A stretch of DNA of 64,000 nucleotides, from positions 18,677,543 through 18,741,542 of the forward strand of contig NC_057751.1 in the NCBI RefSeq assembly GCF_004010195.1, written 5' to 3'. This document shows, in pieces, positions 10,397 through 52,210 of the stretch. The number at the start of each line of letters is the position of its first letter. Within the stretch, counting starts at the first letter, position 1. The translations under genes were made by a program, and so were the position numbers. A model generated the notes under the pieces. That model was not told the DNA's origin. It did not search any database and worked only from the letters and a program-made list of their open reading frames with translations. The stretch is from Chiloscyllium plagiosum. Its lineage: Eukaryota.

Positions 10397-12063
10397 TTAG
10401 AGTTGTTCTAAACGGGATCGAGCTTTTACTAATTTTGCAATGTGTGGGAATGGGTAGTTTACACTGTTCTTGAGTTCATTTCCGAATTCTCGCTGGGTCA
10501 CAGTGTAAATGGAAATGTTAGTACATGTACTGAGGAGCTGTTACATGCCTGACGTCTGTTCTGTTATATAAGTAGATCTGAGCAGGATGCAAAAACATAT
10601 GTTTGCAATTTGCAGATAAATGTGAGGTGAGGATTTTGGGGAGAATAAGAGGAAGGCAGAGTACTGGGTCAATGGAAAGATTCTTGGTAGTGTGGATGTG
10701 CAGCGGGATTTTGGAGTCTATGTACATAGATCCCTGAAAGTTGTCACCCAGGTGGATAGTGCTGTTAAGAAGGCATACGGAGTTTCATTCGTAGAGGGAT
10801 TGAGTTCTGGAGCTGCAATATGTGCTGCAACTATACAAAATGCTAGTGCGGCCACACTTGGAATATTGTGTACAGTTCTGGTCCCCACTTTTGGGGAAGG
10901 ATGTGGAAGCATTGGAAAAAGGTGCAGAGGAGATTTATCAGGATGTTGCCTCTCTGGAGGGAAGATCATATGGGGAAAGGCTGAGAGAGTTGGCTCTGTT
11001 CTCTTCGGAAAGAAGAAGGCAAAGAGGGAATTTGATAGTGACATACAAGATGGTCAGATTATTAGATTGGGTTCACAGGGAAAATCTTTTCCCTAGGATG
11101 ATGACGTCAGCTTGTACGAGGGGGCATAATTATAAATTGAGGGGTGTTAGATTTAAAACAGATGGCAGAGGGAAGGCTCTTTACTCAGAGTGGTACCTGC
11201 TGATATCGTCAACTCAGCCACTTTAGGGAGATTTAAACAATTCTTGGATAAGAACATGGATGATGATGGGATAATGTAGGGGGACGAACTGAGAATAGTT
11301 CACAGGTCGGCGCACCATGGAGGGCCTGATCTGCACTGTATTGTTCTATGCTCTATATTCTATTATAAACAACCCAAGTTACCAATAAAACAATGAAAGT
11401 GCCAGATATACTGAAGAATTGAATAATGGAGTTTCTTCGCTTCTCCATCTCTTGGTCTTTGTGATTCCCTACAAAGGTGCAGCCATGGAGGCCATGTCGG
11501 ACTCGACTTGTCACTTTAATGCGCCTGACAGTCAGAATATTGAGGAGCAAAACAAGAAAAAACAGGAGAATGGGAGTTAATATGAAACAAAAGATGACAA
11601 ATGTGGTCCATGCCGAGAAGCAACAAAGTTTCGTTTCAATCTACATTCCCAGGGAACAGCAGCAACAATCATAAATCGAGCTTCCTGTGTAAAGTGGGCA
11701 CGAAGAGTCTCCAAACAGCTCAGTATGCTCACTGTTGTTAGAACCAGAGCCGCTGGGTTTTTTTTCAGTGCAGTACTTTGTTTAGCTTCTCACAGCAAAT
11801 GGCCACAAATCGATCACGGGTGAAAGTCACAGTGAGCCAAATGGAAACAACTGTGGCTGCAAAACTCAACGTGGTCATGAGACAACAAACAGGAGTAATC
11901 AGGAGATATGAATCTCGGAAATAAATTGCAGCCAACCACCTCAGTTTACCTTCCGTGACAGCGAATAGAAGAACAGCCACTGCCATCCCAACCAGGTAGC
12001 TAATGATGCATTTGGACAAAGAACACTTTCTGTGGGACAGGATGACGACTGCAATGAGGCTAA
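10397..12063 (-). pseudogene. GPR139-like pseudogene B (exon 2 equivalent) split by a CR1 insertion
   Basis: Acceptor TTTCCCTTTTAG|TTAGC, then ILSHRKCSLSKCIISYLVGMA and SIWLTVTFTRDRFVAICCEKL. Frameshifts follow, then LLNILTVRRI...DQEMEKRRNSII. Beyond the CR1 it resumes with QLLSTCTNISIYTVTQREFGNELKNSVNYPF...stop at 10397. Confidence 0.88.
10611..11356 (+). mobile_element. CR1 LINE 3' fragment inserted in pseudogene B
   Basis: QRDFGVYVHRSLKV and LYKMLVRPHLEYCVQFWSP. Tail TTGTTCTATGCTCTAT. Confidence 0.9.
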
Positions 12064-13914
12064 CTAAAAGGGAAATAAAAATAATCAGGGAATATTCTGA
12101 GCTGATGCAGAGCAGAGTGAAAGACATAACTTTTCTGTGTTGAAATTTTCGTCGTTTCCCACTTCTTTAATGAGCTGCAAGAGGAGATATTTTGCTCAGT
12201 ATTTCTTTTCAATTTTCTATGGCATAAAAGGAAGATTGTTTATCATTTATTTACACAACACCAGAATTGAGAATTAAAAGCATGAGATCTATTTGAACGT
12301 CTGAAGTAGAATGCAGTGAAACAAGCAAGAGATAAAATGCTTTTTAATTCAGGGTACACAACAGCAAATGTTGGATCTAGCACCAGCTTGAAAGCTGGAG
12401 AGGACTGATGACAGTTCATTGCTTTCGAAATGTTCAGTAAACTGAGACACTGCGGTGTGCAAAGGCATAATGCATGAGGAATATGGGGATGGAATTAAGA
12501 CCTTGTAAGACGTTTGGATGGTACATTGGATTTCTCAAGAACGCAAGGATTATGAAACTGAAGTGAACACAGTTTGAGAGAAGCAGTTACTTTGGAATAA
12601 TTGATACAAGGAGGGATGTCTTTTCTTAATAATTCATGCATGCAAGATCGCGCTGTGCCAGCTTTTACTGCTCACTGAATATTGCTGGAAGACAATGAAC
12701 AAAGAAGCACATTTCTGGAGTCACATGTAGGCCGACCAGATTCCTCCATTATAGGGGACATGGAGAAAATTTGCCATTACTCTCTAGAGTTCATTATTTA
12801 ATTACTGAATCCAAATTTAATCTGCTATGATGGAGTTTGAATCTATGTCCATATATTCAGTGGCTCTGAGATTACGCCATCTGTGGTGCTACTAATGTGC
12901 CAACTCATTTACTTACAATTCAATGAAATGAAAGGAGATATTTGAAAGGATATATTGTAGCAGTGTTTCAGTCAATGTATTTTCTAGGAAATGCTTCAAG
13001 AGCCACATCAGCCATTAGTCCCTTTGACCACTGATGTTATTGACCAAGTAACCTAAGTGTGCAAAGCAAGTTTAATAATTCCACACTACCGATTTGGATA
13101 GGATTCAATTTCATTGCAGACAATCAGACCTGTGTTTCCTTGTTTTCTATGGGAACAACCATTTGAGGCTCAGGTTCAAAATTATGCGTTATCACGAACT
13201 ATGTTGTTCACAAATGTAATGTAAAACTTCGAAATGGTAAGAGATTGGTGGAAGAGACTGAGATACTGAAAGGAAAAAAGCCACAGGAGTGAGACCAATT
13301 TGAAATATCACTCAAAAAGACAGCATTCTGACAGAAAGTAAAAACACAGCTACTCTCGTGAATCATTGTGAATGGTTTATTAGTTGTGCAGCTTCTCCCA
13401 TCCATCTCAATAAATCTTTATTGCTATCTCTCCCTTTAATTTATTCTACGCTCCCCTCCCCTTCACTGTCTTTCGGGCACTTTGACCTGCCATTTCATAT
13501 CTCCATCTCAACTCTGTGAAACTCAGTCTCCACTCTCAGGCACAATTATTTCCTCCATATCGTTCTTCATTCTGTGTGACCTGTTCAACCTTCATTCTTT
13601 ACCAATCTGTTACCGATCTTGCTTGCTCTGCCCATATCTACATGTCCTCCTCGTGAACAATTGCTGTCACGGCACATACTCGACATTACTTTCTTCTGAA
13701 CTTATTTTAGTATCTGACGCTTGTTTCCCCTTATTTCTTGCCTTCCAAAAATCTGAAACTGCCTCAAAACACAACATTGTTAGTACCTATAGTTAATTTC
13801 CAGGTAAATTAAGCCCCAGAGTAGCTTCACAATATTTCCAGCTTCTTCAGTGTAATAATTAGGTTGGAGACGAACTAGTTTCTCACTGAAAATGCCTCCA
13901 AAAAAAGTTTTTTG

Positions 13915-14075
13915 GTGGCAGTATGGCTCAGTGGTGAACACAGTTGCTTCACAGAGACAGAAAACTCCGATTAATTGCAACCTCGGGCAATTTATGGAAT
14001 TTACACATTCTGCCTGTGTCTGCGTGGGTTTCCTGCGGCTTCTGCAGTTTCCTCACAGTCCAGAGATATGCAGAG
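13915..14075 (+). mobile_element. HE1-type V-SINE fragment
   Basis: GGTGGCAGTATGGCTCAGTGG A-box-like start and the V-domain GTGTCTGCGTGGGTTTCC. Confidence 0.6.
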
Positions 14076-15731
14076 TAGATGGAGTAGACGTTTATGGGTG
14101 CCAAGAATATCGATAGGTCTCCGTTCTAGTATGGCGATATCGATGACCAAATCCTTCCACCAGGCATCAACTATGCGTTTGTTTCACTGATAAGTGAACA
14201 CCTTGAGCTGAGAAAAATGATTTGAGGTCCAAGAGCATAGAAGCTGTATCTCTGCTCTCAGCAGTAAGAGTTTCAGTCATTTTAAAGGAAACAAGTTCAT
14301 ATTTTCTTTAGTTGTGCTTGCAAGCTGTGATTTTGAACTAATAACTTAAGGATTTCAGTCAGTGACCAAGCCATAATAATGTTGGAAGCATGGGGAGAAA
14401 ACAAAAGTGACATTGAAAAATGTTTTCGCTAGCATCTGAAACAAAAGGATCATCTAAGCAAAGAGTGAAGTGGAACCACTGAACTTGCTTCAAATTTCGT
14501 TTGTTTCTAATTCATTTGTCTGTGTCTGCTGGCTTGTCGCCATAAGAATAAGGGAGATTTTGTTTGCTTTGGAAAGGCAATCAGAAATTATACCTGCAGA
14601 GTAACATTTGACGGTTGATCGCTGCTTTCATGGCGTTAAAGTCTAAGTACTTGCAATAAGTAGTGATCCATGTTTCAGTGGAGACCTAATCCAAGCTTTG
14701 GATCAACATGAGTCTGAAAATCAGTTAAACCTGGAAAGTTTAAGTGAATACTTTAAAATCGTGAAGTTTTATTACAACACTGTAACAAGTTCCGATTGAT
14801 TTATAGGATGATACGTAATGAATTGTGACAGGCAATGACATGTCAGTGACAAAGAATATGCATGATGAGAATAAGATGAGCGTATAATTTTACTCTGATA
14901 TTGGGATAAAATATATATACTCCAGTGGTCTGCTTTACAGACCTCAATGTGATCATGACATTTTGCTTCAATTATATAGTAGCGTGTTTACAAAACATTG
15001 AGGTCATTGTGTACAGTTTCCTCTCCGTTTAGAAGGAAAGATATCATTGTCATCGAGGGTTGACCATAAAATGTATGCTATAATTGCACGACAGAATGAA
15101 ATGATTCTCCTATAAAGAGTGATTGTGCAAAATTAACCGGCAAACTTTAAAGTTTCGAAAAATTAAAGGTGATCTCATTGAAGCTTATTAGCAATTGACA
15201 GTACAGACAAGATAGATGCTTGTAGATGAAGTTCAACATCAGAGGGATGCAACCGACGTATGTGAGTCAGAGAAAACTTTTATTATTATTCAGACAATAG
15301 CAAAATGTTGGAATTCTCCACCACAGGGCACTGCAGCGACTCATGTCTGAATATATTAAGTCATAGAATGATAATTTTCGGATTTTCAAATTTGTCAGAA
15401 CTAAATGTGTTCAATCAGCCATGTTCGTGTTGGTGTTGCATGGTAAGGTCGATGTGCTAAATGACTGAAGACTCCTCACATTTTCCAGTGCTCTTCAGAG
15501 TACACCTTTCCAATGCGTGCGATTCATGGGGCCGCAGACAAATCTAACCATCGCTGCATCATCGAACTTAGGGATGAAGGTTCTCTTCACTATGCCTAAA
15601 TCAGAGATCCCGTGAGGGAAGAGATTGTTACAATTATGTCACCATCACTGAAATAGTTGATGATCTTGTCCAGTTCATCAGTGCCAGAATGGCCTTTGCT
15701 GCTGGAATATCCATTTTTATAGGTTTTCTAA

Positions 15732-16630
15732 TCATTTAATGAAATTAGAAATTGCAATGAAGGGAGATGTCACAAAATGTTTCAGCTGAAGCCTGAACTT
15801 TGTTTGGGTCACAGCATAGATGCCAGTGTTTGTGCAGCAACTCAGGAGTTGCAACATGAATCCCATTTCTTGAACAAATTCGTGGAGATACCCAGTACTG
15901 TAGCCCAACCATGACATTCTGTACCATATAGAATAGACCATGAGCATGGCCCATAAGAGGATGAAATTCGCAGATATAACAAAGAGTAGAATTATGGATT
16001 TCCTCCGGTTCTCAATCTCTGGGTCTCTGGGTCTCTCTTTGTTGCTGCTAGCCTTCAGTCTTGTGCGGGCTCTGCTGGCCATTAAAATATGTCTGACAGT
16101 CAAAGCATTAAGCAGCAAGATAAGAACAAACGGGATGCAGGGATTCAGAATGTAGTGAATCGTTTCGATGACTATCCAGGTCTGTGATAGCAAAGCCATG
16201 ATTGTTACAGCACAAAACCAGGGGCTGTGGCCAAGCAAATATCTCTCAGTTAACATAAAATACCAGAAAATATTTTTTGAAAAGTTTACTATAATCAGTG
16301 TTCCCAAAACAATAACTTGAGTTTTCTCAGTGCAATATTGGCACTTCAGTTTCAGACAACAAATTGCCACAAATCTATCAAAGCTGAATGCAACAGTGAA
16401 CCACACTGAACAGTCTGTCACTGTATAAAGCAGGATGGCATGGACGTTACAAACAGGGATGGAATACAGAAAATAAAAATGTTCCCGATAAATAATTGGA
16501 ATATGTCTAAGCATCAGGTCAATAATAATAACTAATAGATCCGCTGCTGCCATGGTGGATAAGTAACGAGTGATGCATTTGGAGAGACCACACTTCCCAC
16601 GTGAAAGAATGTGAATCGCCATTAGATTAA
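15732..16630 (-). CDS. GPR139/GPR142-like class A GPCR (gene A), coding exon 2 (end of TM1 to C-terminus); spliced product 369 aa
   Basis: Acceptor CTTTTTCTTTCTTGCAG|TTAAT joins exon 1 in frame (GVP-V-NL). Uninterrupted ORF with MAAADL (TM2), PVC, DCSVWFTVAFSFDRFVAIC (TM3), PCIPF (TM5), NFILLW (TM6), SCCTNTGIY (TM7), KFR helix 8, and TGA at 15734-15732. Confidence 0.92.
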
Positions 16631-17199
16631 CTGCAAGAAAGAAAAAGCTGAGCAGAATTATAAATTTCAAGCATTCGGTTTTAATAATTAGGTTTGTATA
16701 ATTATTGTGAGAGATTCTTAAATAGGTTACCTTATTCTGCTAAAAGTGCAAGTATTAAATTAAAACTCTAAAAATCATTAAGTATACAAATGATAAGCTT
16801 CACTGCTCAAGGCAAGAATTGTTATGTAAGAAGCTAAATGGGAAATTAATTTGAAAAAGAACAACACACGTAAATTGGTCACAATAACACCTTTGATTAA
16901 TCTATTTTTTTTCTTTGTGAATTGTGCAAGTGGATGGGAATTCTTTGCTCACCATCTTCGAAATTTCTTCCTGAAATATGTTCAAACAGTTCATTATTCT
17001 ATACAGAGCAGTTCTAAATAGAAGAATTTTTTTTTTTAAAACAGGGAGCAAAATTATAAGGATATATGCAATTCGAGATAATTGCAACTACCAGGTAGGT
17101 CGTACTGAACAGATTATTGGATCTCTATTTTTATAAGTGTGTGTGACTTTATAGTCTTTATTCTAATCTTCAAAGACGTGCCAAGTGAAAGAGTGGTGC

Positions 17200-18830
17200 A
17201 TCAGTATTAATTATCTCAAACTTGAAATGGTGTGGACAAAGGTTTGGGAAATTAAGAGAAAAATGTGAACTTGTCCCTTTTGTGTGGAAGAATAAAAGTA
17301 AATGTTACCTAAATTGTGAAAGATTTCGGGATTCGAGGATTCAGAAGGATCTGGTTGTGGGTGGCATGTAAAAGAAAGCAAGTATTCATGAAAACTGATA
17401 CAAATTTTCTTTCATCACACGGATTATTGAATCTAAAAGTAAAAGGATTTACTTTAATGAACAAAGCATCAGTGAAACTGCAACTGGACAACGGTGTTCA
17501 CTTTTGGTCTGATTTGAAGAAGGATGCAGCTGAAGTGAAGGAAATTCACTGGCCATTTGGAACTAATATTTGGAATGAATAAGGAAAGGTTGAACAATTT
17601 AGCCTTTTATCCCTCACAATCTCGATAAGAAAAGCTTAACTTGGCAGAAGCATGAAAGATCTTCAGCAGTCTTGATAGCGTACACGTGGAGAGGATGTTT
17701 ATATGCATGGCATAATTTCGATCATTGTTCAGAAACCAACATGAGGGAAATGTTTTTTCATGCATTACGTGAGCCTTAGAACCTTGCGTGTTAAAATAAG
17801 TGATATAACAAGAACTTTTAATATTCTTGAAGGCAGAGCTGCAGAGATGTTTTGACAATTAAATAGAAGGAGACTGGAAAATGGAAATGGACTGGAAAAC
17901 AGACTTGAAGCTATACTGTTATGCGCCATGAACTTGGACAAAACTGAAAGTGCTTCTGGGACGATTGACATTTTAAGACGCTATTTTATTCAAGCTACTG
18001 TTTCCAAATAAACCTGTTGGACTGTAACTTGATGTTGTGTGATTTTAAAACTTTGCCCACACCAGTCCAACGCTGGCGCCTTCAAATCACAGACAAGGGA
18101 GTATATGTTCATATGTAATGTGAGTACAAATCAGTCTGGTCACACCAGCAATGCAGTTAATGAAAAATATTGTGTACAACTTTTGACAAGCATTTTCAGG
18201 GTCAAGTGCAAGACGATTATGATTTACTCTTTACCAATCTCAAACCCGTCGAAAGCATTTATCAGACCTGATTTGTGACATGGTGTCCATTTCTGAGACA
18301 CGCAACTTCGCAAAGAGTGCACATCTTTAGTGAACACATGAAATACTGCTGCATAAATGTTCCCAGAGTTTGAAAATTCGGTCTCCAAGGAAAATTTTAA
18401 CATTTTGTAAGCTCACATCTTGAGATGATTAATAAAGACGCATGCTTAAAAATATCATTCTTGCACAACAAGTTATTTGGAAGTTAACTTGCATAACAGA
18501 AACATGAATGAAGTAGGTTAAATTATATCTCTGCTATAAACATCAACACTATAAACATTAGTGCGAGACTAAGAGCGATACAGAGAAAGAGAGATGAGGA
18601 CTGCAAATTCAAGTGCATGCTGCATCCAATGAGCAGAAGAATTCTATGAGATACAATTGCTTCTGATGGTGGGTTCTCATTCCGGGGAAAGGGATTAATA
18701 CTTTTGCGAAAATTCTGTATCAGCCTCTGAGTATGATTGGGATTTCTGGCAATGTAGACGTGATTTCAGATCATGATCGATGGTAACTAATTAAAATGGG
18801 AGAAAGAAGGACCATGAAAAAAAGTGCAGA
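17200..18830 (+). mobile_element. Old CR1 fragments and a PLE 3' end (~17990-18090) within the gene A intron
   Basis: Decayed VHFWS-type CR1 C-terminal pieces. TTTCCAAATAAACCTGTTGGACT is shared with the PLE end at 48530. Confidence 0.5.
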
Positions 18831-19058
18831 AGAGTTAGCAAAGCAAATTATTTGGTTTTGAGAATTATCAAAGCTCCTGAGAGAGCAAAGAGGGAGCGAG
18901 TCACTTGGAAGATTAGTAAAGCGGTGAGCAATCATTCTCAGCTCTATGAGCTAGATGTAAATAATGGTCAGGAATATTGATAGCAATAAAGATAAGAAAC
19001 AATTGCTCCAGTCATGTCACGTAGTTTAAAGATACAATGGCTGGATAGAAAAACTTAC

Positions 19059-19269
19059 CAGGCACACCAACAACAGCAAGTATGGGATAATAAATGTATT
19101 TTACAATCCGAAGTGCCCGATAGATCCGTGATACTAACGTCAATGTATCATAATTCACAATGAGGAGGTGAACCTCCGAAGAGAATCCCTTGCCATCAGT
19201 TGGAAAATTCCAGTCTGCTGCTCCGACATTCCAAACACTTGAGGATGCATTCCCAGCGATCCTGTTCAT
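19059..19269 (-). CDS. GPR139/GPR142-like class A GPCR (gene A), coding exon 1 (N-terminus and most of TM1)
   Basis: First in-frame ATG at 19269 (A at -3; in-frame TAG TGA upstream). Encodes MNRIAGNASS...IVKYIYYPILAVVGVP (70 codons + 1 nt), with an N-glycosylation sequon NAS. Ends at the canonical donor CCTG|GTAAGT, phase 1. Confidence 0.85.
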
Positions 19270-20046
19270 ATTGTCGAATATTGCTGCAAAGCTCAATTCA
19301 CTGATTCCAGATCGTACACCTTCACTCGTTTGTTCCACTATATCGTACCCTTTCCCCCTTGCTCACTATTCCTCTCTAAAACTGTGCGATCTCTGTTTGT
19401 TATTTGTATAATGTTCCCACGTGAACTACTACTTAACAGGCTAAACAGGCTAAACACGAATCACAATCCCCCCGTGACCCAATTAGTGTTATTTGAATCT
19501 GACATTATATGCCATCGCGGAGAATGGATTCAGTTTACTTAATCAATTACAGCACTCCTTTTATTTTTTGTGGAAAACCGAACTAAATTTGTCCAGTGCC
19601 ATACTATGCAGTAAAAGAGAAATGAAACTTAGAAAACACATATCTGGATTATGTTAGAAAAGCAGTGATGTATTAATAATGGCACCAAAACAGTAATTAA
19701 TGCAGCAAATTACTAATTTTAATGTTATTATAACATGTGGTGAAATTAAACATCAAATTATAGATTTGGATCTGCAAACAACTCTGAATAACTTTGTAGA
19801 AACATACATCTGCTTGGCAGCACAGCATATAGAGCTCTGCAGCGGAGAAACGACCATTCAAATCATCATCTCTCTGTTATTCAAAACTGAGTACATGATG
19901 ATTGTCAAGCCATTTTCGAGTACTTGGTCCTTCGCCAAGTACGCCTTAGCATCTAAATACTTATTCAATGTTCTAAGGGTTTCTGTTTCTACTGCCCACA
20001 TTTACCAGAAAATGAGTGCATGATTGAATTTGGGACGCAGGCTCAT

Positions 20047-20200
20047 GGGCAGCACGATGCCTCAGAGGATTGCACCGCTTCCTCACACCGCCAAAGACAG
20101 GGGTTCGATTCCAGACTCGGGTGGCTGCCTGTGTGGCGTTTGTGCATCCTCGCTGTATCTGTGTGACTTTCCTCCAAGTGCTCCAGTTTCTTCCCACAAT
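20047..20200 (+). mobile_element. HE1-type V-SINE 5' fragment
   Basis: tRNA-like head with B box GGTTCGATTCC and a partial V-domain. Confidence 0.65.
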
Positions 20201-20209
20201 CTCAAAGGC

Positions 20210-22090
20210 AGTAAGAGTGTAGTTAAGAAGCAAATCCGGAGGGCAAAAAGACAGCATGAGATAGCCTTTGTCAAAGATGGCAAAGGAGAATCCAAAAGGT
20301 GTTTTTACAAATACATGAAGGCGTAACTTTGGAGAGAATAGGGCCCCTGAAAGATCAACAAGGCAGCCTTTGTATGCAACTGCAGAAGATGGGGGAGTTT
20401 ATAGACGAGTATTTTGCGTCAGTGTTCACTTTGCAGAAGCACATAGCAGATGTAGCATTGAGGGAGTTAGATGGTGACGTCTTGAATAAATGTCCATATT
20501 TCAATGGAAGTCCTGAAACGCATAAAGGTGGATGCATCGCCAAGGACGTGATCAGGTGTAATCTAGAACTCTGTGGGAAGTTAAGGATGTGATTGCTGGG
20601 CCCCTCGCTGCGATATCTGTGTCATTGATAGTCTCAGGTGAGTTGCTGGAAGACTGGAGATTGGCTAACTTTTTACCACTATTTAAGGAAGGTGCTAAGG
20701 ACATGCCGATGATCTATAGACCAGTGACCCTGATGCTGGTAGTGGCCAATCTGTTGGAGGGAATCCTCAGGCTCAGGATTGACACATATTTAGAAGGGCA
20801 AGGACTGATTAGGAATACTCAACATGGCTTTGTGCATGTGAACCTGTGTCTGGCGATCTTGCCTGAGTTTTTTGAAGAAGTAACAAAGAGGATTGATGAG
20901 GGCAGATATGTGGACCTGATTGATGTGGACTTCAGTAAGGCGTTCGACATGGTTCCCCATAGGAGACTGTTTAATAAGGTCTGACGTCATTGAATTTATA
21001 TTAGCTAATTTGAAATAGCTAATTTGGATGCAGAACTGGCTCAAAGGTAGAAAACAGAGGGTGAAGATTTGCTTTACAGAATGGAGGCCTATGACCAATG
21101 GAGTGCCACAAGGATCGATGCTGGTTCCACTTCTTTTCTTCATTTACATAAATAATTTGGATGTGAATATAGGAGGTATGGTACGTAAGTTTGCAGATGA
21201 CACCAAAATTGGAGGTGTAGTAAACAGCGAAGAAGGTTACCTCAGATTACAACGAGATCTTGATCAAACGGGCCAATGTGCTGATGAGTCGCAGACGAAG
21301 TTTAATTTATATAAATGTGTGGTGCTGCGCTTTGAAGAAGCAAATCAGAGCAGGACCTACTCACTTACTAGTAGGGTCCAGCGGAGTGTTGCTGAACAAA
21401 GAGGTGTGCAGGTTCATAGCTCCTTGAAAATAGAGACGCAGTTATTTAGGATAGTGAAGAAGACTTTTATTATGCTTTATTTTATTGCTCAGAGTCTTGA
21501 GTATAGAAGTTGGGAGGGCATATTGCGGCTGTGCAGGCCGTTTGTTCAGCCACGTTTGGAATGTTGCGTGCAATTCTGGTCTCCTTCGTATCAGAATGAT
21601 ATTGTGAAACCTGAGAAAGTTTAGAAAAGATTTACAAGGATGTTGCCAGTGTTGGAGAAATTGAGCTATAGGAAGAGGCTGAATAGGCTGGAACTGTTAT
21701 CGTTGGAGCATCAGATGCAGAGTGGTGACCTTTTTGACGTTTATAAAATCATGAGAGTCATGGCTATGGCAAATAGAAAATGTCGTTTACCTGGGGTGGG
21801 GGAGTCCAGAACTAGAGGGCATACGTTCAGAGTGAAAGGGTTAAGATAGATGACAACTATTTCACGCAGAGGGTGGTGTGTAAATGGAATGAACTACCAG
21901 TGGAAATGATGGAGGCTGGTACAATTGCAACATTTAAAAGGCATCTGGATGGGTATTTGAATAGGAAGAGTTTAGAGGGATATGTGCTATTTGCTGGCAA
22001 ATGGGACAAGATTAGTTTGTGATATCTGTTCGGCATGGACAAGTGGAACCGAAGGGTTTGTTTCCATGCTGCACATCTCTCTGACTTAAT
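20210..22090 (+). mobile_element. CR1 LINE, RT region to 3' end, with stops
   Basis: EDWRLAN, YRPVTL, QHGF, DFSKAFD, GVPQGS, FADDTKIGG and CVQFWSP. Confidence 0.92.
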
Positions 22091-22713
22091 AAATCTATGT
22101 GCAAGTTCGATGAATTGTCCATCTTTTTTTCATTGTGTTCAGGGATGTATAAGTTTAGATGCATTAGTGTGGGGATGTATAGTTTTAGGAGGATGGCAAT
22201 GGGTCTGGGTGGGATAATGATCGAAGGGTTAATGTGGACCAATTTGGTCTAAATCGCCTGTTTCACATTGAAAGGATAATGTGATTCTAATTTAAAAGTA
22301 CAAATTTACAATGACTGATCTCAGAACAGCATTTCCTAAATCAACTAGACTTCCCGTGGTTTCTGTTAGGTGAAAAAATAATTTAAAATATAAGAAAAAA
22401 ATCAGGGAACCACAAATTTTAGAACATCTTAAATTTCCTTTCAGTGCTCACTTTATGGAATTACAGTAGGTGTAGCGAACGAATAACCTGAGTATTGGCA
22501 CAATCTCTGCCTACAGTAATGGATACAGAGTGTCATTTGCACATCTCATACAATGTTCAAGTAAACAGATATTATTCCAAGCAGAAACTATTACTTCATT
22601 GTTTGCTTTCCTCACAACTAAGTAGTAACATTTGTGATCTTGTCCCGGAAAAAGTGTTCTCTCCGAATGTGTCTTTCGCTATGGATATGGCAATGGCAGA
22701 TCTCCTGGTGATT

Positions 22714-23472
22714 ATAGAACATAGAACATAGAAGAATACAGCGCAGTACAGGCCTTTTGGCCCTCGATGTTGCCCTGATCCAAGCCCACCTAACCTACAC
22801 TAGCCCACTATCCTCCATATGTCTATCCAATGCCCACTTAAATGCCCATAAAGAGGGAGAGTCCACCACTGCTACTGGCAGGGCATTCCATGAACTCACG
22901 ACTCGCTGAGTAAAGAACCTACCCCGAACATCTGTGCTATACCTACCCCCCCCCCCCCTTAATTTAAAGCTATGCCCCCCCGTAATAGCTGACTCCATAT
23001 GTGGAAAAAGGTTCTCATAATCAACCCTATCTATACGCCTAATCATCTTGTACACCTCTATCAAGTCACCCCTAAACCTTCTTTTCTCCAATGAAAACAA
23101 CCCCAAGTGCCTCAGCCTTTCCTCATACGATCTTCCTACCATACCAGGAAACATCCTGGTAAACCTCCTCTGCACCCATTCCAGTGCCTCCACATCCTAC
23201 CTATAGTATGGCGACCAAAATTGCACACAATACTCCAGATGCGGCCGCACCAGAATCTTATACAACTGCAACATGACCTCAGAACTCCGGAACTCAATTC
23301 CTCTACCAATAAAAGCCAGTACGCCATATGCCTTCTTCACCGCACTATTTACCTGGGTGGCAACTTTCAAAAATCTGTGTACATGGACACCAAGATCCCT
23401 CTGCTCATCCACACTACCAAGTATCCGACCATTAGCCCAGTACCCCATCTTTTTGTTACTCTTACAAAGATG
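22714..23472 (-). mobile_element. CR1 LINE 3' end (relatively young)
   Basis: (ATAGAAC)n tail. VRPHLEYCVQFWSP...RGDLIEVYK...FFTQRVVSSWNALP. Confidence 0.92.
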
Positions 23473-23594
23473 CACTGGGACAGCATTCCAATGTTGTCCT
23501 ACTTCTCTGTAGTTCAGGCACTGACAGCCAGCTGCATGACATTAACATGAAATCTCCAAATTAGCAAAGAAGGTGGCTTTTTCAACCATCTGGA

Positions 23595-23745
23595 TAACGA
23601 ATGTCCTTTAGGGAAGGAAATCTACCATCATTCTGCAGTCTGACCTCTATGTGACTTCTGAAACCAGTTGATGTACCTTGATTCCTAATTGCTCTCCAGC
23701 AAGCCAGTGAATTCAAGGGCAATTTGGGATGAAGAGTAAATCTCC
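23595..23745 (+). mobile_element. Probable Deu-domain SINE fragment (related minus-strand copies at ~12630-12900, 37030-37330, 39180-39420)
   Basis: AATGTCCTTTAGGGAAGGAAATCT...GTGACT...CAAGGGCAATT resembles the DeuSINE central domain as I recall it. Confidence 0.45.
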
Positions 23746-24222: not shown

Positions 24223-24239
24223 ACACTAATCCAAGTCAT

Positions 24240-25832: not shown

Positions 25833-26844
25833 TTATCATTAACCTCATGCTGCCACACTTTCCATTTGTATATAAGGAAAGGCATAATATCTTCGACGGC
25901 ATCCCTGTGGATAATACCCACGCTGTCCTGATTTATGCAGCCACCGACTGTTCTGTCTGGTTCTCCATCACCTTCACCTTTGATCAATTTGTGGCCATTT
26001 TTGCCCGATTTCTGAAAATTAAATATTGCAATATGACAACAATGGCGTTGGTTCTGGGAATTCTGACTGGATTGAGCTGTTTGAAGAATATTTTCTGGTA
26101 TTTTATGTTCAAAGGTCAGTATTATCCGAGGGTAAAAAAACATGGTTTTGTTGCATCATAAGAGATGTCAAGTTTTCTCAGGTGTCAATTGAGTTCTTCC
26201 ATTACATAGTAAGACCAGGAGTTCTCTTTATTCGTATTCTGCTTTTCACTCTTTTAACGGTCAGAATATTATAGTGACCAACAAAACCGGCAAGAGACTC
26301 CAGCATTAAAGGAATAGGAAGAGCGCCAGATACCCAGAGATGAAAGATCGAATGAATTCCATCATTTTATTGTTTCACATCGCAGGGAATTTTCTACTGT
26401 TGTCAGTATCAATGGTATTTTCAATAAATTGGAGAACGGTAAGTTTGGGATATCAATTCATTGATCTACCTCTTTGCGTAATGGGACTGGGCTACATGCT
26501 CCAGGAGCTCAGTCGCTGCACAAACACTGCAATGTATGTCATCATATATCCTAAGTTCAGAGAACAGTTGAATAATATGTTCAACTATCCCTTTACTCCA
26601 CTTGTTAGTTGGATTAAACGTTGAGACTGACTGAAAAATTACACCATCAACAATCAATTCCGCAGCTATTTCTATGCAATCTGTACTCTCTGTGTCTGAT
26701 TTGTAGACATCTGTGAAACTCGGTTATATGTCTAGTACCTCTGATTTGTGAGTGTTGCCTCTCTAAATTGCCTGTGCAGCGTATTTTTCTGCATACTAAT
26801 TGGTTGCGTTGTAACAATACTGAGGTTGTTTGCTGTACCAAGTG

Positions 26845-39900: not shown

Positions 39901-40069
39901 AGAAACTCTGCCTCAGTTTGTGGGAAAAACGAAAGTGAACATATTCAATTAGTTTGAAAACGGAACGTCTCCATCAAATCTTCCACTGAAGAATAACTCG
40001 AAGTCACTGGTTGCTGGGCACTCTCAGTGATGCGATAATTGATCAATCAATTGATTTGACGAATTGATT

Positions 40070-40929
40070 AATTGAAGTCAACGGTTACTTCAGCATGAGT
40101 GTGGGCCACTCTCTAATTTTAGTCGCAATTTCTTAATTCCAGCACAAATAGATTTAAGGATACAGATTTGTAATCTTACATGCCAGTAAACACACAGAAA
40201 CATCCGAAATGTTGACCATTGCAGCTTGAAATTTCCCCACACTACATACAATCCAATAAGCCATTATGTTTGACTCTCTATCTCCTGGTCTCCGGATGTT
40301 TTCCCACTGCTGTGTGCCCAGACAGTTCTGCTGGTCCGGAAAATAAAAAAAGTGTTGTACATTGCAACGTTGATCAAAAGAATGGTGACAAATGGAAACA
40401 AGGGGAAATGATCTGATGGAAGAACTCAACTGTTTTCCAGAAAGCAGTGTATTAGATATATGCTCTTGCATCAGGAGACAGGGGAGTTCCATTAGCTGTT
40501 AGTATTTTTATTTGTCGTTTGGGGAAACTTCAAACTGTATTGGTCAAGATTTACGATGTTCCTGTGTGCATTTTGTTCTCCATCAATTTATTAACGTGAC
40601 TGAGCAGATTGGCACAATTGCTGTTCCACATCTTCGATTACCGTTTTCTCTGTGCCATGCTTAGCTTTCATTAACGGCCAGAATCTGATCAAAGCTTAAA
40701 GTGACAATGAACCAGACAGAACTGTCCATTTCTGTTTAAATTATGAGATCATGGATATTGCTCATGTATCCTCTGGAAAAGAAACATTTCACAAAAGAAG
40801 TCGTAATTCGTGTAAATAACAAGCCCTGGGTAAAACTGCCAGTTAATCCAGTAACAGAATGGAGATCAGGTAACCAGTGATGCATTTAGATACACCATTA
40901 TTTACGAAACATAATTACCAATATGTTAA
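40070..40929 (-). pseudogene. GPR139-like pseudogene D, highly decayed
   Basis: Acceptor CCCACCCTCACAG|TTAAC. Fragments in shifting frames with multiple stops: GVSKCITGYLI, DSSVWFIVTLSFDQILAV, KHGTEKT, VEFFHQII, HSSGKTSGDQEIES. Confidence 0.75.
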
Positions 40930-41179
40930 CTGTGAGGGTGGGAAATGGTCAGTTAAGTTACAACTCAGTCTATGATCAGATTGATGGAGCACTCAGCATT
41001 TCAAATGTTTAACTTCTTCCTATGATGCAGCGAAATGGCCACAACGAGTAAGGGTTCTATCTTCAGAACACAGCGGAGACAAGTGACGAAAGACAATAAA
41101 AGGTTTACATGACAATGGTCCACCAATGATGGAGGGGATACAAAGGTGACAGTTGAAGCAGGAATAAATGAGGGAGGGA

Positions 41180-45200: not shown

Positions 45201-46340
45201 CGCCATAACAAAATTGGACTCCTATCCAATACCATAATTAGATGACTGTATGGAGACAGTTGCACAAGTCACTTACATCACAAAGTTGCTCTTACTGCCT
45301 GGCTATCAGCAGGAACTATTATCTGTGAAAGTGAAAAATGTTTCTGTATTTCAGTTCAAAGAGATGCTCTTTGGAATGAAGAACGCACGTTCCAAAGACA
45401 CATAAACAGAGTAATGGCAGGACTAACAAATTATGCAGTTTATCTGGATGATACAATGATCTTTCACAAGACATGAAAAGATCACATGGCAGATTTGGTT
45501 GGACTCTTTGAAACATTACGAGCAGCAAAACTGGTAATAAACATAAAGAAAGTGGAATTTTCTAAGGCAGACGCGAGTTCCTTGGGACATAACAGCGAAT
45601 ATTGAGGGTTGCTCCTAAGGAATGTGAAGACGAAGGCCATCAATGAATTTCCACGGACAACCTTGAAGGAAGAAGTGATTCGATTTTTGGGACTAAGCGG
45701 TTTCTACCAGAATTTTCTTGAAAGATTTGGCAGAGCGATGGCACTGCTAACAGATTTACTGAAATAGAACAAAAGATGTCGGTGGACAGTACAATCCCAA
45801 GAGGCATTTGTGAATTTACAAGAAGTATTAACTACCACCCCAGTTTTAGTTGCACCACTTTTTTTTTAAACCCTTCAAATTTGCAATCGAATCTAGCGGT
45901 ATAGGAGTTGAAAGTATAGTGCTACAAGTTCATAATAATGGAATTAAACGGCTAATTGGATACTTTTTAATGAAACTCAACACCCGCCAGAGATAACACA
46001 CTACCATCAAGAAAGTTTGGTCCACGTTTTCCAACACTTTAATGCTTATGTCACGACCAATGTTTCGGAGACGTTTATATACATAGATCACGATCCTCTT
46101 ACATTCTTGGAAAGATTTAAAGACAAAAATATGAGACTTTGCATTGGAGGCTTGTATTTGCAGACATTTAATTTACAAATTGTACAAGTTGTGGGTCAAA
46201 ACGATGTCATAGCAGATGTGTTACCGTGGATTTAAAGGAAAAGGTACAGGTGCGTATCTAACAGATTCAAATATTTTATATATTACATACATACACACAC
46301 CCACACACGTACACACGAAGAAATTAACAGGAAAGTATAA
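42295..46340 (+). mobile_element. Degenerate Gypsy (Gmr1-like) internal region: gag, protease, integrase, RT, RNase H
   Basis: Gag EMSDEYAL and zinc knuckle FHCDKLGHLKS*CW (~42605). Protease end GIQFPLGQDLAG, integrase HGLHRKIQSDQGSNF and PFELIFGHEVR (~44200-44450), then RT YLDD (~45440) and RNase H YIDHDPLTFL...NDVIADVL. Confidence 0.88.
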
Positions 46341-46519
46341 TTTAGTTGAATGAAGTTAAAACTCAGACAAAACCAGATTATATCCAACAAATTTATTTGG
46401 AACCACCAGCTGCTCCTTCATCAGGAGTTTGTGGACAACAGGATTATAAGACACAGAATTTATAGCCAAAAGTGTACAGTGTCATGGAGCTGTAACGATA
46501 TATTAAACAAATTTAGATC

Positions 46520-47540
46520 TAGCAGCAGACAGCGGCAGGAACTGGGCGGAAGCGAGGTCGGAGCACAAAGGCTATTGGAAAGTTAGTGAATACTATTTAA
46601 GTATTTACCTCGAAGCCAGCATTCTTCTTTGCAGCAGAGAGCGGCGGAAGGTGGGTGCAAGTGAGGTCGGAGAACAGAGGCTGTTGGGAAGGTAAGTGAG
46701 TGCTGTTAAAGTAGGTGAGTCAGTGTGCTGCGTGAATGATGTGGCAGGTCAGGGACACTGATGGTGTCTCTGACTCGTATAGCTGTGGAAAGTGTGTACA
46801 CCATCAACTTTTGACAGAGCATGTAACAGAACTGAAGAAAGAATGAGATAACCTCAGACTCATCTGAGAGAACGAGAATTATCTGGACAGGACTTTCCGG
46901 AGGTCATTACACTGAGCGTACCAGCAGAGAGAAGGGAGATGACGATGAGGAAGGAAGAGATTATTCAAGCACAAGAGACCCCGGGGGAAGTACCTCTGGT
47001 GAACAGGTTTACTTTCTTGGAAACTGTCGAGACAGACGACACTGCCAGTCTAAGAGGCGCACAGGTCTGCCAATTGAAGATTGGCATGGAGGCAGAGCGG
47101 TGGCATCCAAAATCATGCAGGGCCGTAGTAATAGGAGACTCTACAGTCAGAGGGGACTAAAAGGTGTTTCTGCGGCAACAAGGCGAGATTTGAGAATGGT
47201 GTGCTGCCGTCCTGATGCCAGGATCCTGGACGTCAACGACAGAGTGCAGGGAATCCTCAAGGTGTAGGTGAAGGGCCAGAGGTGGTGGTCAGAAAGAAGA
47301 GGAGAGTCATTCTACAGCAGGACGTCAGAAAACTCGGAAGATGGTTGGAAAGGAGGACTTCCAGGGTGGTTATCTCTGGTTTGCTTTCTGTTCCTCGGGA
47401 ACAGGGAGAGAATACACTTGAATGTGTAGCTGAGGAACTGGTGCAGGAAGCAAGGATATAAATTCTTGGATCACTGATGTACGTTTTGCCGTAAGGATAA
47501 ATTATACAAGAGGGGCAGATTGCACACAAATAGGTGGGGT
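46520..47540 (+). mobile_element. CR1 5' UTR and ORF1 remnant (zinc finger/leucine zipper and SGNH esterase-like)
   Basis: MWQVRDTDGVSDSYSCGKCVHHQLLTEHVTEL, VPLVNRFTFLETV and AVVIGDSTVRG. Confidence 0.8.
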
Positions 47541-47779
47541 CTGAATCAACATTGGGACACAGATAGTCTTAAACCTCACACCTTTAAGCCATTGTCGGAG
47601 TTGGAGATGACACTTATTGTTAGAAAAGCTAAATAAATCTTGAGAATGTAACTTAAAATGAGTTCTGGGATTTACATATTAATGAATTGAAGCTCGCACG
47701 GATTCTAAAAGATGAAAACTTACTCTAAATTTGTTTAATGTATCATTACAGCTCGATGACACTATAACACTTTTCCTAT

Positions 47780-48450
47780 TGTGACGACATGGGGTAAATC
47801 CTCCTGCTTAATTTAAACTACAACAAAGATTTATCCCGTGCAGTAATCTGAGAAAACTCGAAAGGCCAAGAATGAGTTAAAGTTAAGTAACAACGTTATT
47901 TCCTAACGTATAATAGATAATAATTCACTAACAACTATCTGCAAATCCTTCCTAGAACTTTTCTTTTACTTTCATCTCTATAAGACGTGTTTGATAAAAC
48001 CTCCGATAAAGAGTTACAAAAATTCAACTTTTCAAAAACTAGCCAGATGTCGAATCTTCTTTTCTTCTTCTTCGAAATTTCTGCTTCACAGTTTACTGAT
48101 CGATAAAGGTAGCTTTAAGCGAGCTATTCCCTGGGCAGTCTGCAGATGTTATCGACTTGGCAGTTCTCCTCTCAACTGTTCAGTTTTCGCCAGTCTTACA
48201 CCCCCAAAACATTGTCTTTCAAGATGGTTAATATACCAAATACAAAGTTGACTGGAATTTGGTATTTTTGGGGATATAACTTAAACTGATTTGCCCGAAT
48301 CGAATCTGTTTTGTCATTTTCAGCAACCAGCTAATCTAGCTTTAAACCCAGTGTTGCGGTGTTGCCTTATTCAGAACGCTTAGTGCTATTAGATAGTTCT
48401 ACTAGCTTATAACTCTCTTAACAGTACACCGCACCCACATTTTCATAACA
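47780..48450 (-). mobile_element. Solo Gypsy LTR, same family as 7418-8111
   Basis: Minus strand starts TGTTATGAAAATGTGGGTG and ends TTTACCCCATGTCGTCACA. Colinear with the LTR at 7418. Confidence 0.82.
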
Positions 48451-48614
48451 TGCTCATAAATTCTGTGTCTTATGATCCGATCCTCGAGAACCACCTGATG
48501 ATGGACCGGCGCATCAAAAGCTAGCATTTTCAAATAAACCTGTTAGATTATAATCTGGTATTGTGTGATTTTTAAACTTGTTCAACACCAGTGAAACACC
48601 GGAAACTCCAAATT

Positions 48615-49475
48615 TAGATTAATTACATATACATTTCATAGTAATTCGATTAAGAATTAGAGGGGAAAAAAATGGAATCCATCATGATGGCACATTTTTT
48701 CTTCAGAGATGATGTTTTATGAAGCTGAAGGCGTGTAATGTACCTTGAAGAGAGAGAGATGTTGTTCTGAACTGCGAGATTACGAGCACCTGAGTATATA
48801 ACTAGCTAGCAGTCCTCTAGTGCACTGGAAAATTATTAATATGTAATGTTTGGCTGTGAAATGGAGACCTGAGTTTTGGTTGCTCTTTTGACAACATTTG
48901 AAATGTAACAAAACATTTTAAATTATTCCTCAAGAAACTAAAAACAAATTAAGTTTGAATTTATTGAGTTGCCATCATCGAAATTATGAGACGGTCCAAT
49001 GGGAGTATCTTGCGGGCAGCTTGGAAGCTGGAGAAAGAGGAACTGCTATTAAGACCGACAATCCTATGGATGTAAGAGTTTACTCTCCAATAAATTAGAA
49101 AACGCGCTCCATCAAAATTATCTTTCCATATGAATATACTTGCAGTAAAAAGAAAGAAGACGACTCTGAGAAATTCACAGCCAGAAAACGAAAGACACAG
49201 AAGACGACTGCGGCTATGTGACCTTGTAATTTTGTTGGAACAGCATATTCTTAGAGTTGGAGGCAGATAATAAGCAGTTAACAGAAATGGGGACTTACAG
49301 CTGTGAATAGTTGTTTACTGTTTAGATTTAGAATACAGAAAATAAATTGATGTTATTTTCTTTAAATACTGACATTTGAGAGGTCACTGTCAAACATAAT
49401 TTAACAGATGACGAAACGTGTTGAGCTTTTCTGGGTATTTGGATTCATCAAAAAAGTGTCCCAGCACCTCTGTTG
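48615..49475 (+). mobile_element. 3' UTR and 3' LTR of the Gypsy element at 42295
   Basis: Sequence before ~48713 parallels 2300-2390 (GATTAGAGGG...ATGATGGC). The LTR-like start TGTTTTATGAAG...TGTACCTTGAAG follows. Confidence 0.65.
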
Positions 49476-50129
49476 AAATCTTATGTTTTATCTGTCTAAT
49501 GGCACAAATGTTGTGATTCTGAAGCAACTAATGAAGTCCAGCATGAAGCCCAATTCCATCATGAACCACCTAGATGCACAGAGTGATACAATAAACTCTG
49601 CATCCAGTTCTAATTCAATAAACCATTAATGTAGATCAGAACAGAATCAAATTGGTTGTTAAAACAAAATTTAAATTTATGGATTGCCTCAGCTCTCCAA
49701 TGCTGCAACCCGGTGAGATTGTTTACTTCTGTGAGACCGAAGTCTCATGCAGTCTCTGTTAATCATTAAAATGTGTCTGATCGTGGAATATTTGAGCAGC
49801 AGAATGATGAGAAATGGGATAGTCGAAATTAGAATGTGGTGGACGAACGCAATTGATGTGGAGACTCAAAGATTATATATATCGACTGCTACACTATAAG
49901 TCTGAATATAAAATATAAGAAAATGATGTTAAATCAGCTTTTACCTGTGATATTCCAGAATAAAAAAACAGCCGCTCTTTTCACGCTGCCATATTGCATT
50001 ATCAGTTTCTGGACAAAATCGGTAACAGTGACTCAGAGACAAAAGTCAGCGTCTGCATAATGCAATATGTGTGGTTATTATATTATATAGTACATCAGGA
50101 GAATACAAGTCTCCACAGTACAGAAGCAG

Positions 50130-51018
50130 AGCTGGAAATGTGTTGCTGGAAAAGCGCAGCAGGTCAGGCAGCATCCAGGGAACAGGAGAATCGACGTTTC
50201 GGGCATAAGCCCTTCTTCAGGAATGAGGAAAGTTTGTCCAGCAGGCCAAGATAAAAGGTAGGGAGGAGGGACTTGGGGGAGGGGCGTCGGAAATGTGATA
50301 GGTGGAAAGAGGTCAAGGTGAGGGTGATAGGTCAGACTGGGGTGGGGGCGGAGAGGTCGGGAAGAAGATTGCAGGTTAGGAAGGCGGTGCTGAATTTGAT
50401 GGATTTGACTGAGACAGGCTGGGGAGAGGGGAAATGAGGAAACTGGTGAAACCCGAGTTCATCCCTTGTGGTTGGAGGGTTCCTAACCGGAAGATGAGGC
50501 GTTCTTCCTCCAACCATCGTTTCGCTGTGGTCTGACGATGGAGGAATCCAAAGACCTGCATATCCTTGGTGGAGTGGGAGGGGGAATTGAAATGTTGAGC
50601 TACAGGGTGGTTGGGTTGGTTGGTCCGGGTGTCCCAGAGGTGTTCTCTGAAACGCTCCGCAAGTAGCCGGCCTGTCTCCCCAATATAGAGGAGGCCACAT
50701 CGGGTGCAGAGGATGCAATAGATGATATGTGTGGAGATNNNNNNNNNNNNNNNNNNNNNNNNNNNNNNNNNNNNNNNNNNNNNNNNNNNNNNNNNNNNNN
50801 NNNNNNNNNNNNNNNNNNNNNNNNNNNNNNNNNNNNNNNNNNNNNNNNNNNNNNNNNNGGCGGAGGAGCGGGAAGTGGAAGAGATGCGGTGGAGGGCATC
50901 GTCAACCACGTCGGGGGGGAAATTGCGGTCCTTGAAGAAGGAGGCCATCTGGGTTGTGCGTTTCCAGCAACACATTTCCAGCTCTGATCTCCAGCATCTG
51001 CAGACCTCACTTTCTCCT
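50130..51018 (-). mobile_element. Penelope-like element 3' part with GIY-YIG endonuclease (gap 50739-50858)
   Basis: IIYCILCTRCGLLYIGETGRLLAERFREHL. Perfect 16-bp TSD CACAGTACAGAAGCAG at 50114-50129 and 51019-51034. Hammerhead motif (CUGAAGA) at 50190-50224. Confidence 0.92.
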
Positions 51019-51034
51019 CACAGTACAGAAGCAG

Positions 51035-51335
51035 GACTATCAGCCCAACGTGCCTGCACAGACCCTCGAAAAAGCATCCCACACAACGAAGCTCTCTCCC
51101 TGAAACATTGTAATTCCCATAGCTCATCCAACTAGCCTGCACATCTTTGGGACAATTTCACATGGACAAGCCACTGTTACATGCAGAGCACTCGACTGTG
51201 GGAGGAAATTGGAACATCCGAGCATAACCAAAGTAAACACAGGGAGAAAACACAACCTCCATAAAAACTGGGTTCGAAGGCTGGAGTGGTACTTGGGACC
51301 CTGGCGCTGTGCAGCAGCAGTGCTAACCACTGTAC
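51035..51335 (-). mobile_element. HE1-type V-SINE, decayed
   Basis: GCAGCAGTGCTAACCACTGT head and CCTGCACATCTTTGG on the plus strand. Confidence 0.7.
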
Positions 51336-51574
51336 TTCAGTATCACGTACATTCATTGTGAAGGATCAGAATGTATCTCACTCCCAGATCGAAGATAACA
51401 ACTGAAACATTAGCTGCTGCTGTGGACCAGCATGACTAACTCATGGAGGGAACACACAGTTTTTTTTTAAGAAAGGGAGGAAAATCATTCCTATATTTAC
51501 GGTGAGGAAAGAAAACAAACAAATATAAATTGTCTCTAGCCTGAAGGCAAAGGTAGCAGATGAGTTGAGGACCC

Positions 51575-52210
51575 GTTGCGATGTCACCATTTGTTGTGAG
51601 ATATTGAACACCAAATACTGCACTGAGGAAACTGCAACTGTAGTTCTCGCAGCAATCAGCCATCTGCCCTGTTTCCAGAACAGCATCCAATCTACATTAG
51701 TATTGAATTTTCCAAGATTATTAACAATGTACTCTGGAGCCATACGAATTCAGGTGGAGATTATGAAAACCCTGCATGGAGAGAATTTGACATCTTTGAA
51801 TAGATACTGACACCAATACTTTTTTTTACCTTAAGTCTGTTCCTCAACGCTCTGACAGGAAAATGCATTTTATTGGCCAGTCGAGTCCATAAGGGACAGA
51901 AGGTTCAGAATAAGGGAGACAATTCCAAGGACACAGGGATGGAAATTAGAAGGCAGTGAGTAATTTTACTCTGCTCTATATCTGGCAGCTTCATTTTTTT
52001 TGGCTATGTGCCGTTGTATACATAATTTTGATATTGATGATCGTTTAGATAGTGTTGATATATATAAATTTCAATGAGTTGCATAATGGATGCGGAGTTT
52101 GAACTATTGCACGAGCACTACTGTCAATGTGACATCCCTGTCCGAGTTCAGAGTACCTCAGCAACCCATTCGAAGCTACTTTTGCATAAAATATTCAACC
52201 CACTAACAAT
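51575..52210 (+). pseudogene. GPR139-like pseudogene E, 5'-truncated (TM3 end to C-terminus)
   Basis: VTICCEILNTKYCTEETATVVLAAIS, PAWREFDIFE*ILTP and LFLNALTGKCILLASRVHKGQKVQNKGDNSKDTGMEIRRQ*VILLCSISGSFIF. Contains stops and frameshifts. Confidence 0.8.

Follow-up and report, generated by a model that had tools for sequence, protein, structure and literature searches.

The stretch of DNA analysed here (referred to as the window) comprises 64,000 nucleotides of the shark Chiloscyllium plagiosum (NCBI RefSeq assembly GCF_004010195.1, contig NC_057751.1, forward-strand positions 18,677,543 to 18,741,542) and harbours a group of sequences related to the G protein-coupled receptors (GPCRs) GPR139 and GPR142. 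Scanning of the window with a DNA profile built from 26 copies of the family, with the reversed window serving as control, revealed six copies (A to F) within the interval 10424 to 52206; C and F are on the plus strand, whereas A, B, D and E are on the minus strand. The E-values of their main pieces range from 1e-236 to 6e-11, while the best match in the control had an E-value of 1. The initial annotation, made from the sequence alone, had proposed one intact gene and five diverged pseudogenes within ~42 kb on both strands, and it was right as to both count and anatomy. As will be seen, this cluster is a small, old and ordinary corner of a much larger receptor family, and the actual finding is the family as a whole, not the cluster.

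Copy B, the intact gene, is encoded on the minus strand. Its first exon (19059..19269, 211 nt; 62 bits with an exon-1 profile) runs in an open frame from the ATG to a phase-1 donor (G/GTAAGT) and codes for the N-terminus and the first half of transmembrane helix 1 (TM1). The second exon (15732..16630, 899 nt), preceded by an AG acceptor, covers the second half of TM1 through helix 8 and the stop codon, so that the two exons, separated by a GT-AG phase-1 intron, form a coding sequence of 1110 nt and a protein of 369 aa. The only Pfam match of this protein is 7tm_1 (E 1.3e-14; 54.7 bits against a curated cut-off of 30.5), and no match was obtained to the Srw profile PF10324, which marks the true GPR139 sequences. 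The structure predicted from an alignment of 96 sequences reached a predicted local distance difference test (pLDDT) value of 90.2 (an earlier model from 30 close sequences reached 51.6 only and was not usable), and it resembles solved class A receptors with template-modelling scores of 0.60-0.74. In addition, the protein displays the class A hallmarks, including a DRY-like DRF motif, W6.48, NTGIY in TM7 and helix 8. By sequence and model, then, copy B encodes a class A (rhodopsin-like) GPCR. Since the protein, which is 69% identical to P0003 of Scyliorhinus torazame, pairs with it in the quick tree described below (97 in the Shimodaira-Hasegawa-like approximate likelihood ratio test, SH-aLRT), the window gene is probably an old one-to-one orthologue of P0003 that has been kept amid dead neighbours.

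The remaining five copies contain stops and frameshifts, and insertions split copies A, C and E. Copy A (minus strand) consists of an exon-2 part spanning TM1-TM6 (11362..12087), in which the AG acceptor is kept and frameshifts and stops are found, and of a TM7/helix-8 piece (10424..10547, E 1.6e-13) lying past an insertion. Copy C (plus strand) starts with a 5' piece of exon 2 with a mutated acceptor (22591..22715) and resumes, frameshifted, after a 3.1-kb insertion (25833..26634); the two pieces are contiguous in the profile, where positions 149-958 continue positions 20-152. Copy D (minus strand, 40039..40971) is a heavily decayed exon 2 with its AG acceptor kept. Copy E (minus strand) comprises a 5' piece of exon 2 with a mutated acceptor (51357..51527) and a TM3-TM7 piece found with the DNA profile (49492..50067); the unstranded insertion between them (50068..51356) contains a fragment of a GIY-YIG endonuclease (PF01541, E 5.8e-5), which we take to be Penelope-like, and an N gap at 50739-50858. 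Copy F (plus strand, 51582..52206) is 5'-truncated and belongs to a subfamily other than that of copy B, its best matches being the genomic copies L035, L099, L032 and L062. The exon-1 profile detected no exon 1 for the five pseudogenes in the window.

The sequence features that the initial annotation had regarded as common to the six copies were retained in part. The AG of the phase-1 acceptor is found in A, B and D; it has been lost in C and E, and F is devoid of the 5' part. Loose forms of the four shared motifs can be recognised in every copy except E, but the exact forms are rare, ILSRxKCxLSKC and SVWFTVxFxFDRFVAIC being strictly present in copy B only, KYCTEK in copy A only and PEMExRRxS in none of the six, and the motifs are to be considered as properties of the family. 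The DNA identity between pairs of window copies amounts to 42-61%, and copies B-F have better matches elsewhere in the genome than among one another or copy A; judging by these comparisons, the six copies are therefore not a recent tandem array. Beyond the window, the left 30 kb contain no further copy and the right 30 kb contain one fragment. The window itself is repeat-rich DNA with five N gaps and belongs to a contig of 19.8 Mb, whose end is ~1.05 Mb away. Apart from the receptor copies, no host gene was seen, and the space between them is filled by decayed reverse-transcriptase (PF00078, e.g. 21022-21621) and LINE-like fragments.

To what extent the family is expanded can be seen from exact motif matches across the genome: 1,877 for a broad helix-3 motif (control 0), 1,355 for a narrow helix-3 motif (control 1) and 821 for a helix-7 motif (control 2). 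Of the first 60 copies found with the narrow helix-3 motif, the broad motif is shared by 49 and the helix-7 motif by 20, and these counts and overlaps suggest a family of roughly 2,100-2,500 loci, a figure which misses decayed copies (such as five of the six in the window) and to which unplaced scaffolds may add duplicates. Exon 2 of copy B yielded 8,315 first-look candidates in the genome, and in a best-biased sample of 131 that were scored all reached at least 409 bits and 121 were free of stops. Haplotype duplicates were rejected as the source of the count, as the closest pair among 60 copies on chromosome-scale contigs (58 of which could be comparably aligned) is only 96.2% identical, even if some inflation from small unplaced scaffolds is possible. 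The lineage-expanded birth-and-death repertoire proposed in the initial annotation was not only borne out but understated, with about two thousand loci in the genome. On contig G000:C8 the helix-3 matches do not form a single cluster: 68 of the first 100 listed, the last of which still falls inside C8, are spread over its first 41 Mb.

The 60 copies just mentioned, which are consecutive narrow-motif matches and are all located on contigs C1-C8, were examined individually. Their second exon is intact in 17, broken in 29 and interrupted by assembly gaps in 14 (29 of the 46 gap-free copies are thus broken), and the AG acceptor is kept in all 17 intact ones. Scaled up to the family, the fraction of 17 in 60 gives an estimated ~380-690 intact second exons, though complete genes may be far fewer. 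The repeat-rich intron is collinear over 16-26 kb between copies on different chromosomes, so that the family has spread as DNA segments; a retrocopy origin was ruled out, the copies having intron sequence and acceptors in common. An alignment of the 3' flanks showed neither a sharp common end nor a terminal repeat. Instead, the similarity fades into two alternative pyrimidine-rich tracts ~350 bp past the stop codon, in a comparison that did not reach the 5' end. The introns of young copies, e.g. L071, also contain two tandem repeats (units of ~40 and 65 bp) in arrays of up to ~10 kb, which could promote unequal exchange. The 3' flank of another young copy, L081, is interrupted ~2.5-3.3 kb past the helix-3 motif by frames on the opposite strand that resemble a retroviral envelope fragment. 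Meanwhile, exon 1 of L033, L063, L065 and L070 contains a variable number of ~14-residue N-terminal repeats, many with an N-glycosylation sequon, and such extracellular repeats represent a predicted second axis of variation.

The family is not restricted to Chiloscyllium. A protein search with the window protein returned 2,188 matching clusters, and the best 120 of these, all of them from sharks and labelled 'probable GPR139', are 62-71% identical to it. Sharks, skates (Leucoraja, Rhinoraja), rays (Hypanus, Narcine) and the chimaera Callorhinchus (P0174) occur among the 30 representatives examined, and many deep subfamilies are common to sharks, skates and rays. Because of the Callorhinchus member, the expansion probably began before the holocephalan split, as far as can be told from the sequences. 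The members are already annotated in RefSeq, under automatic labels such as 'probable G-protein coupled receptor 139', 'capa receptor-like', 'vasopressin V2 receptor-like' and 'B0563.6', of which the name 'probable GPR139' is misleading. No paper describing the family was found in the accessible text of the open literature, subscription papers being beyond the scope. GPR139 or GPR terms led to no description of it in the available parts of PMC10620051, PMC11979771, PMC8455134, PMC7677710, PMC10116579 and bioRxiv 2025.06.08.657570, nor did shark terms in those of the GPR139 review PMC12208981, and a GPR139 entry is absent from all 24 supplements of PMC8455134.

True GPR139 (L092) and GPR142 (L093, 55%) are each present once and intact in the genome; the next matches score at most 69 bits, and 8 of the next 10 loci examined belong to the expanded family. 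The position of the family was determined in a quick tree of 88 rows and a careful tree of 30 rows, the latter built without the long-branch row P0260, and the topologies agree. The 30 best Pfam matches of this genome (6 in the careful tree) served as outgroups, protostome peptide receptors being left out. In the careful tree the shark family forms a clade (support 98/97) that is the direct sister (100/99) of a conserved gene of amphibians and sturgeon (Pleurodeles XP_069092602.1 = P0232, Xenopus P0282, Acipenser P0298), which RefSeq also names 'probable GPR139'. Two further unnamed lineages join this group (98/98), followed, with weak support, by amphioxus (84/77), and the branch comprising all of these has the GPR139/GPR142 pair as its sister group. 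The approximately unbiased (AU) test rejects a clade of 8 family rows and 4 GPR139 rows (p 9e-28) as well as a clade of the family, GPR139 and GPR142 (p 0.0012). On the other hand, the wider clade of GPR139/142, amphioxus GPR139-like sequences and the family is well separated from other class A receptors (100/99; SH-aLRT 100 in the quick tree, against 30 other shark GPCRs), and the wider kinship is also indicated by the common phase-1 intron, since in GPR139 L092, L097, L099-L103 and copy B alike the acceptor AG falls after the first base of the codon that precedes the TM1 Asn. These trees place the family as a sister lineage, not as orthologues or as an expansion of GPR139 or GPR142.

Three unnamed vertebrate lineages are found beside GPR139 and GPR142: the amphibian/sturgeon gene, a coelacanth/silverside lineage (P0238, P0246) and a lineage represented in this genome by L097 (G000:C98156:21311-22198), a GPR139-like gene with the same intron that is orthologous to anchovy P0266. 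The amphibian/sturgeon gene shares 33% identity with the window protein. Unlike the shark family, it is 66-74% conserved across the amphibians listed, with about one cluster per species and no expansion seen, and it keeps K6.51 and N7.38; the search that listed these sequences did not find it in amniotes. Two weak matches of the expanded-family type, at 59.22 and 59.42 Mb of C21, are situated 0.5-0.7 Mb from GPR139 L092 (G000:C21:58.73 Mb) and might show where the family arose, or simply reflect its tendency to cluster near chromosome ends.

Human GPR139 (PDB 7vug/9m42) and GPR142 are likewise class A receptors with two exons. A single-sequence search of the PDB with the window protein gave no match at E 0.001, and the corresponding profile search returned GPR139 as the best solved structure (E 1.9e-12). 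The window protein, however, is only 24% identical to human GPR139, and one gene each contrasts with thousands of loci. According to the available parts of PMC7318219 and PMC12775434, the Trp/Phe pocket of GPR139 is made up of E3.32, F3.33, H5.43, W6.48, R6.51 and N7.38. These six residues are invariant in all 16 true GPR139/142 rows, while the window gene has L, Y, H, W, L and F at the respective positions and M in place of W166. E3.32 is found in none of the 33 family rows and R6.51 in two rows of one subfamily only; the pocket residues otherwise vary between subfamilies, that of the window gene keeping H5.43, W6.48 and an aromatic residue at 3.33. Conversely, a TM3 cysteine missing from GPR139/142 is present in the family. 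By alignment, the polar Trp/Phe pocket is lost in the family, and sensing of aromatic amino acids in the manner of GPR139/142, to which the initial annotation had pointed, is not supported in view of the sister position and the lack of E3.32, R6.51 and N7.38 in the window gene and its subfamily.

Selection was analysed in 25 of 42 intact exons, each >88% identical to L002; this sample of young copies, to which the window gene does not belong, leans to copies picked for intact frames, and its regions were defined by topology. The ratio of non-synonymous to synonymous substitution rates (dN/dS, omega) amounts to 1.4-1.9 in the extracellular loops and 0.08-0.62 in the helices and inner loops. Codon models gave an omega of 1.61 for 71 loop codons (twice the log-likelihood difference from omega = 1 being 15.2) and 0.33 for the other 225, and pairwise estimates with codon bootstrap agree (loops 1.69, 95% confidence interval 1.26-2.28; rest 0.30, 0.23-0.40). 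Amino-acid heterozygosity exceeds 0.7 at 12 of 72 loop codons and at 0 of 225 codons elsewhere, and it does so in at most 0.7% of pseudo-codons taken from the intron and 3' flank, so that the site-level result for the loops survives this control. The helical bundle is under purifying selection, while about twelve sites, distributed over the three extracellular loops, change more quickly than neutral DNA does. Strongly differing extracellular loops had been noticed in the window copies, and the loops are variable in the young copies too, with dN/dS ~1.6 against 0.33 elsewhere.

Taken together, the data are best explained if the family of cartilaginous fishes to which the intact gene and the five dead copies of the window belong, with some two thousand loci, provides a diversifying set of receptors for varied ligands of external or non-self origin. 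These ligands would probably be peptides, and the receptors are probably deployed in sensory or barrier-surface cells; we would put the probability of this reading at about 45%. Whole two-exon genes with introns of 4-35 kb were copied as DNA to many chromosomes, where most then decayed. The ligand would be read chiefly by the variable loops above a conserved bundle, so it would have to be big enough for loop contact and variable or quickly evolving, and for this reason a peptide or protein seems likelier than a small amino acid. Each copy would have a specificity of its own and presumably signal via ordinary G proteins. Peptides are favoured as the ligand class also because GPR139/142 have peptide receptors as their sister group in protostomes (PMC8557429, available text) and the related srw receptors of nematodes have been proposed to sense environmental peptides. 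Such a family could fill gaps in the shark repertoire, since the accessible parts of PMC10116579 describe the known catshark olfactory repertoire as 34 V2Rs plus 4-9 genes per other family, and those of PMC8455134 report MAS1 relatives as absent in cartilaginous fish. The broader proposition, that cartilaginous fishes independently evolved a repertoire of hundreds of intact genes, the size of the mammalian odorant receptor (OR) set and with positive selection on its loops, out of a sister gene of GPR139 that has remained single in amphibians and sturgeon, and that this is the main missing chemosensory or non-self system of sharks, is tentative and stands somewhat short of even odds.

Several observations weigh against the repertoire reading. 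In the fold search with the copy B model a large number of peptide receptors obtain similar scores and GPR139 comes 22nd, so that no ranking of ligand classes emerges. For the 17 copies with intact exon 2, an intact exon 1 was located 4-35 kb upstream in 5 cases and a broken one in 2; for the remaining 10 none was found, the search having covered 36 kb for five of these ten and 4-26 kb for the others; four of the ten represent divergent subfamilies that the exon-1 profile possibly missed. As to selection, the introns have diverged more (0.12-0.20) than the synonymous sites (0.10-0.13), and the loop and non-loop trees differ (Robinson-Foulds distance 42). Recombination can bias the omega test, and in view of both findings homogenisation of exon 2 by gene conversion may inflate the mean loop omega.

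The expression data are equivocal as well. A search across sequencing runs listed none registered as RNA that contained the sequence. Reads of four sequencing runs, the tissue of the sample being coded, were mapped to the young copy L081 at 85% likeness. One single-cell poly-A run of 12.96 million records contained 214 matching reads, 4 of them at least 99% alike, while not a single one came from the second run made on that sample. The reads pile up close to the stop codon and are oriented as sense RNA would be, with poly-T loose ends on the opposite orientation, but no splice joint is seen in them and both contig sets run into the intron. This weak signal is compatible with low expression of relatives of L081 and proves nothing on tissue or on copy B. 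Furthermore, the 50 genes most specific to catshark brain and olfactory epithelium, as given in the available part of PMC11979771, contain no GPCR, although any individual member of so large a family would be scarce in any case.

Among the alternatives, innate immune surveillance deserves the most attention, even though it seems rather unlikely. Receptors on granulocytes, mast-like cells or other leukocytes, comparable to formyl-peptide receptors or MRGPRX2, would bind microbial or parasite peptides. In a subfamily diverged by only ~10%, an omega that exceeds 1 on the extracellular face and nowhere else does resemble an arms race, and the reported lack of MAS1 relatives cited above would leave room for such receptors. 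Still, the one supplement (4,750 characters) of a nurse-shark spleen single-nucleus paper holds no GPR139 entry, and some two thousand loci far exceed the immune GPCR families we are aware of. Positive selection restricted to the loops would also be explained if the receptors recognised polymorphic endogenous ligands or pheromones (in mate or gamete recognition), or if the loops were escaping pathogen binding, and the peptide-receptor ancestry, which in the accessible literature includes the MIP/sex-peptide receptor group, also fits. Nevertheless, no co-expanded ligand family was seen (no search was aimed at one), pathogen escape alone does not account for thousands of paralogues, and both variants appear improbable.

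Lower still stands the idea that the family consists of amino-acid odour or taste receptors retaining the ligand class of GPR139/142. The profile match to GPR139, the shared intron position and the retained H5.43, W6.48 and aromatic 3.33 speak for it, but the substitutions of E3.32, R6.51, N7.38 and W166, the intact GPR139 and GPR142 elsewhere in the genome and both AU tests make it quite doubtful. Mostly passive amplification, in which a duplication-prone segment spreads the gene and a few working copies are surrounded by drifting debris, would accommodate the collinear introns, the 29 broken copies and the five young copies with no exon 1 within 36 kb, but it is an equally poor candidate given an omega of 0.33 outside and above 1 inside the loops of the youngest subfamily, the acceptor kept in all 17 intact exons, the deep subfamilies common to sharks, skates and rays, and 3' flanks devoid of a sharp common end or terminal repeat.

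As for other repertoires that the shark family resembles, the vertebrate OR, TAAR, V1R and V2R families are likewise clustered, pseudogene-rich and of comparable or smaller size, and rodent MRGPRs form a clustered, pseudogene-rich repertoire too. The shark family differs from all of these in origin, as its only Pfam match is 7tm_1 and the tree places it beside GPR139/142, and it varies in the loops and not in the deep pocket. A parallel is offered by the srw receptors of Caenorhabditis, which the accessible part of PMC2576165 relates to myosuppressin/FMRFamide receptors, describes as expanded by birth-and-death and proposes as sensors of environmental peptides. That expansion took place independently in nematodes, with 148 promoters listed in C. 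elegans (PMC2576165).

The available parts of the literature describe cartilaginous fishes as relatively GPCR-poor (PMC8455134) and as combining large olfactory organs with an olfactory receptor repertoire that is very small (PMC10116579). The analysis brings to light three more unnamed vertebrate lineages beside GPR139 and GPR142, as well as a parallel in nematodes, where the srw receptors expanded out of this ancient group of peptide receptors too. The old question of which receptors underlie the chemical sensitivity of sharks, or their innate recognition of non-self, becomes directly testable. Whatever the tissue in which it acts, a family with about two thousand loci and diversifying selection, which an incorrect automatic name has kept hidden, contradicts the GPCR-poor picture, and an independent shark repertoire, if true, would overturn the view of sharks as poor in such receptors.

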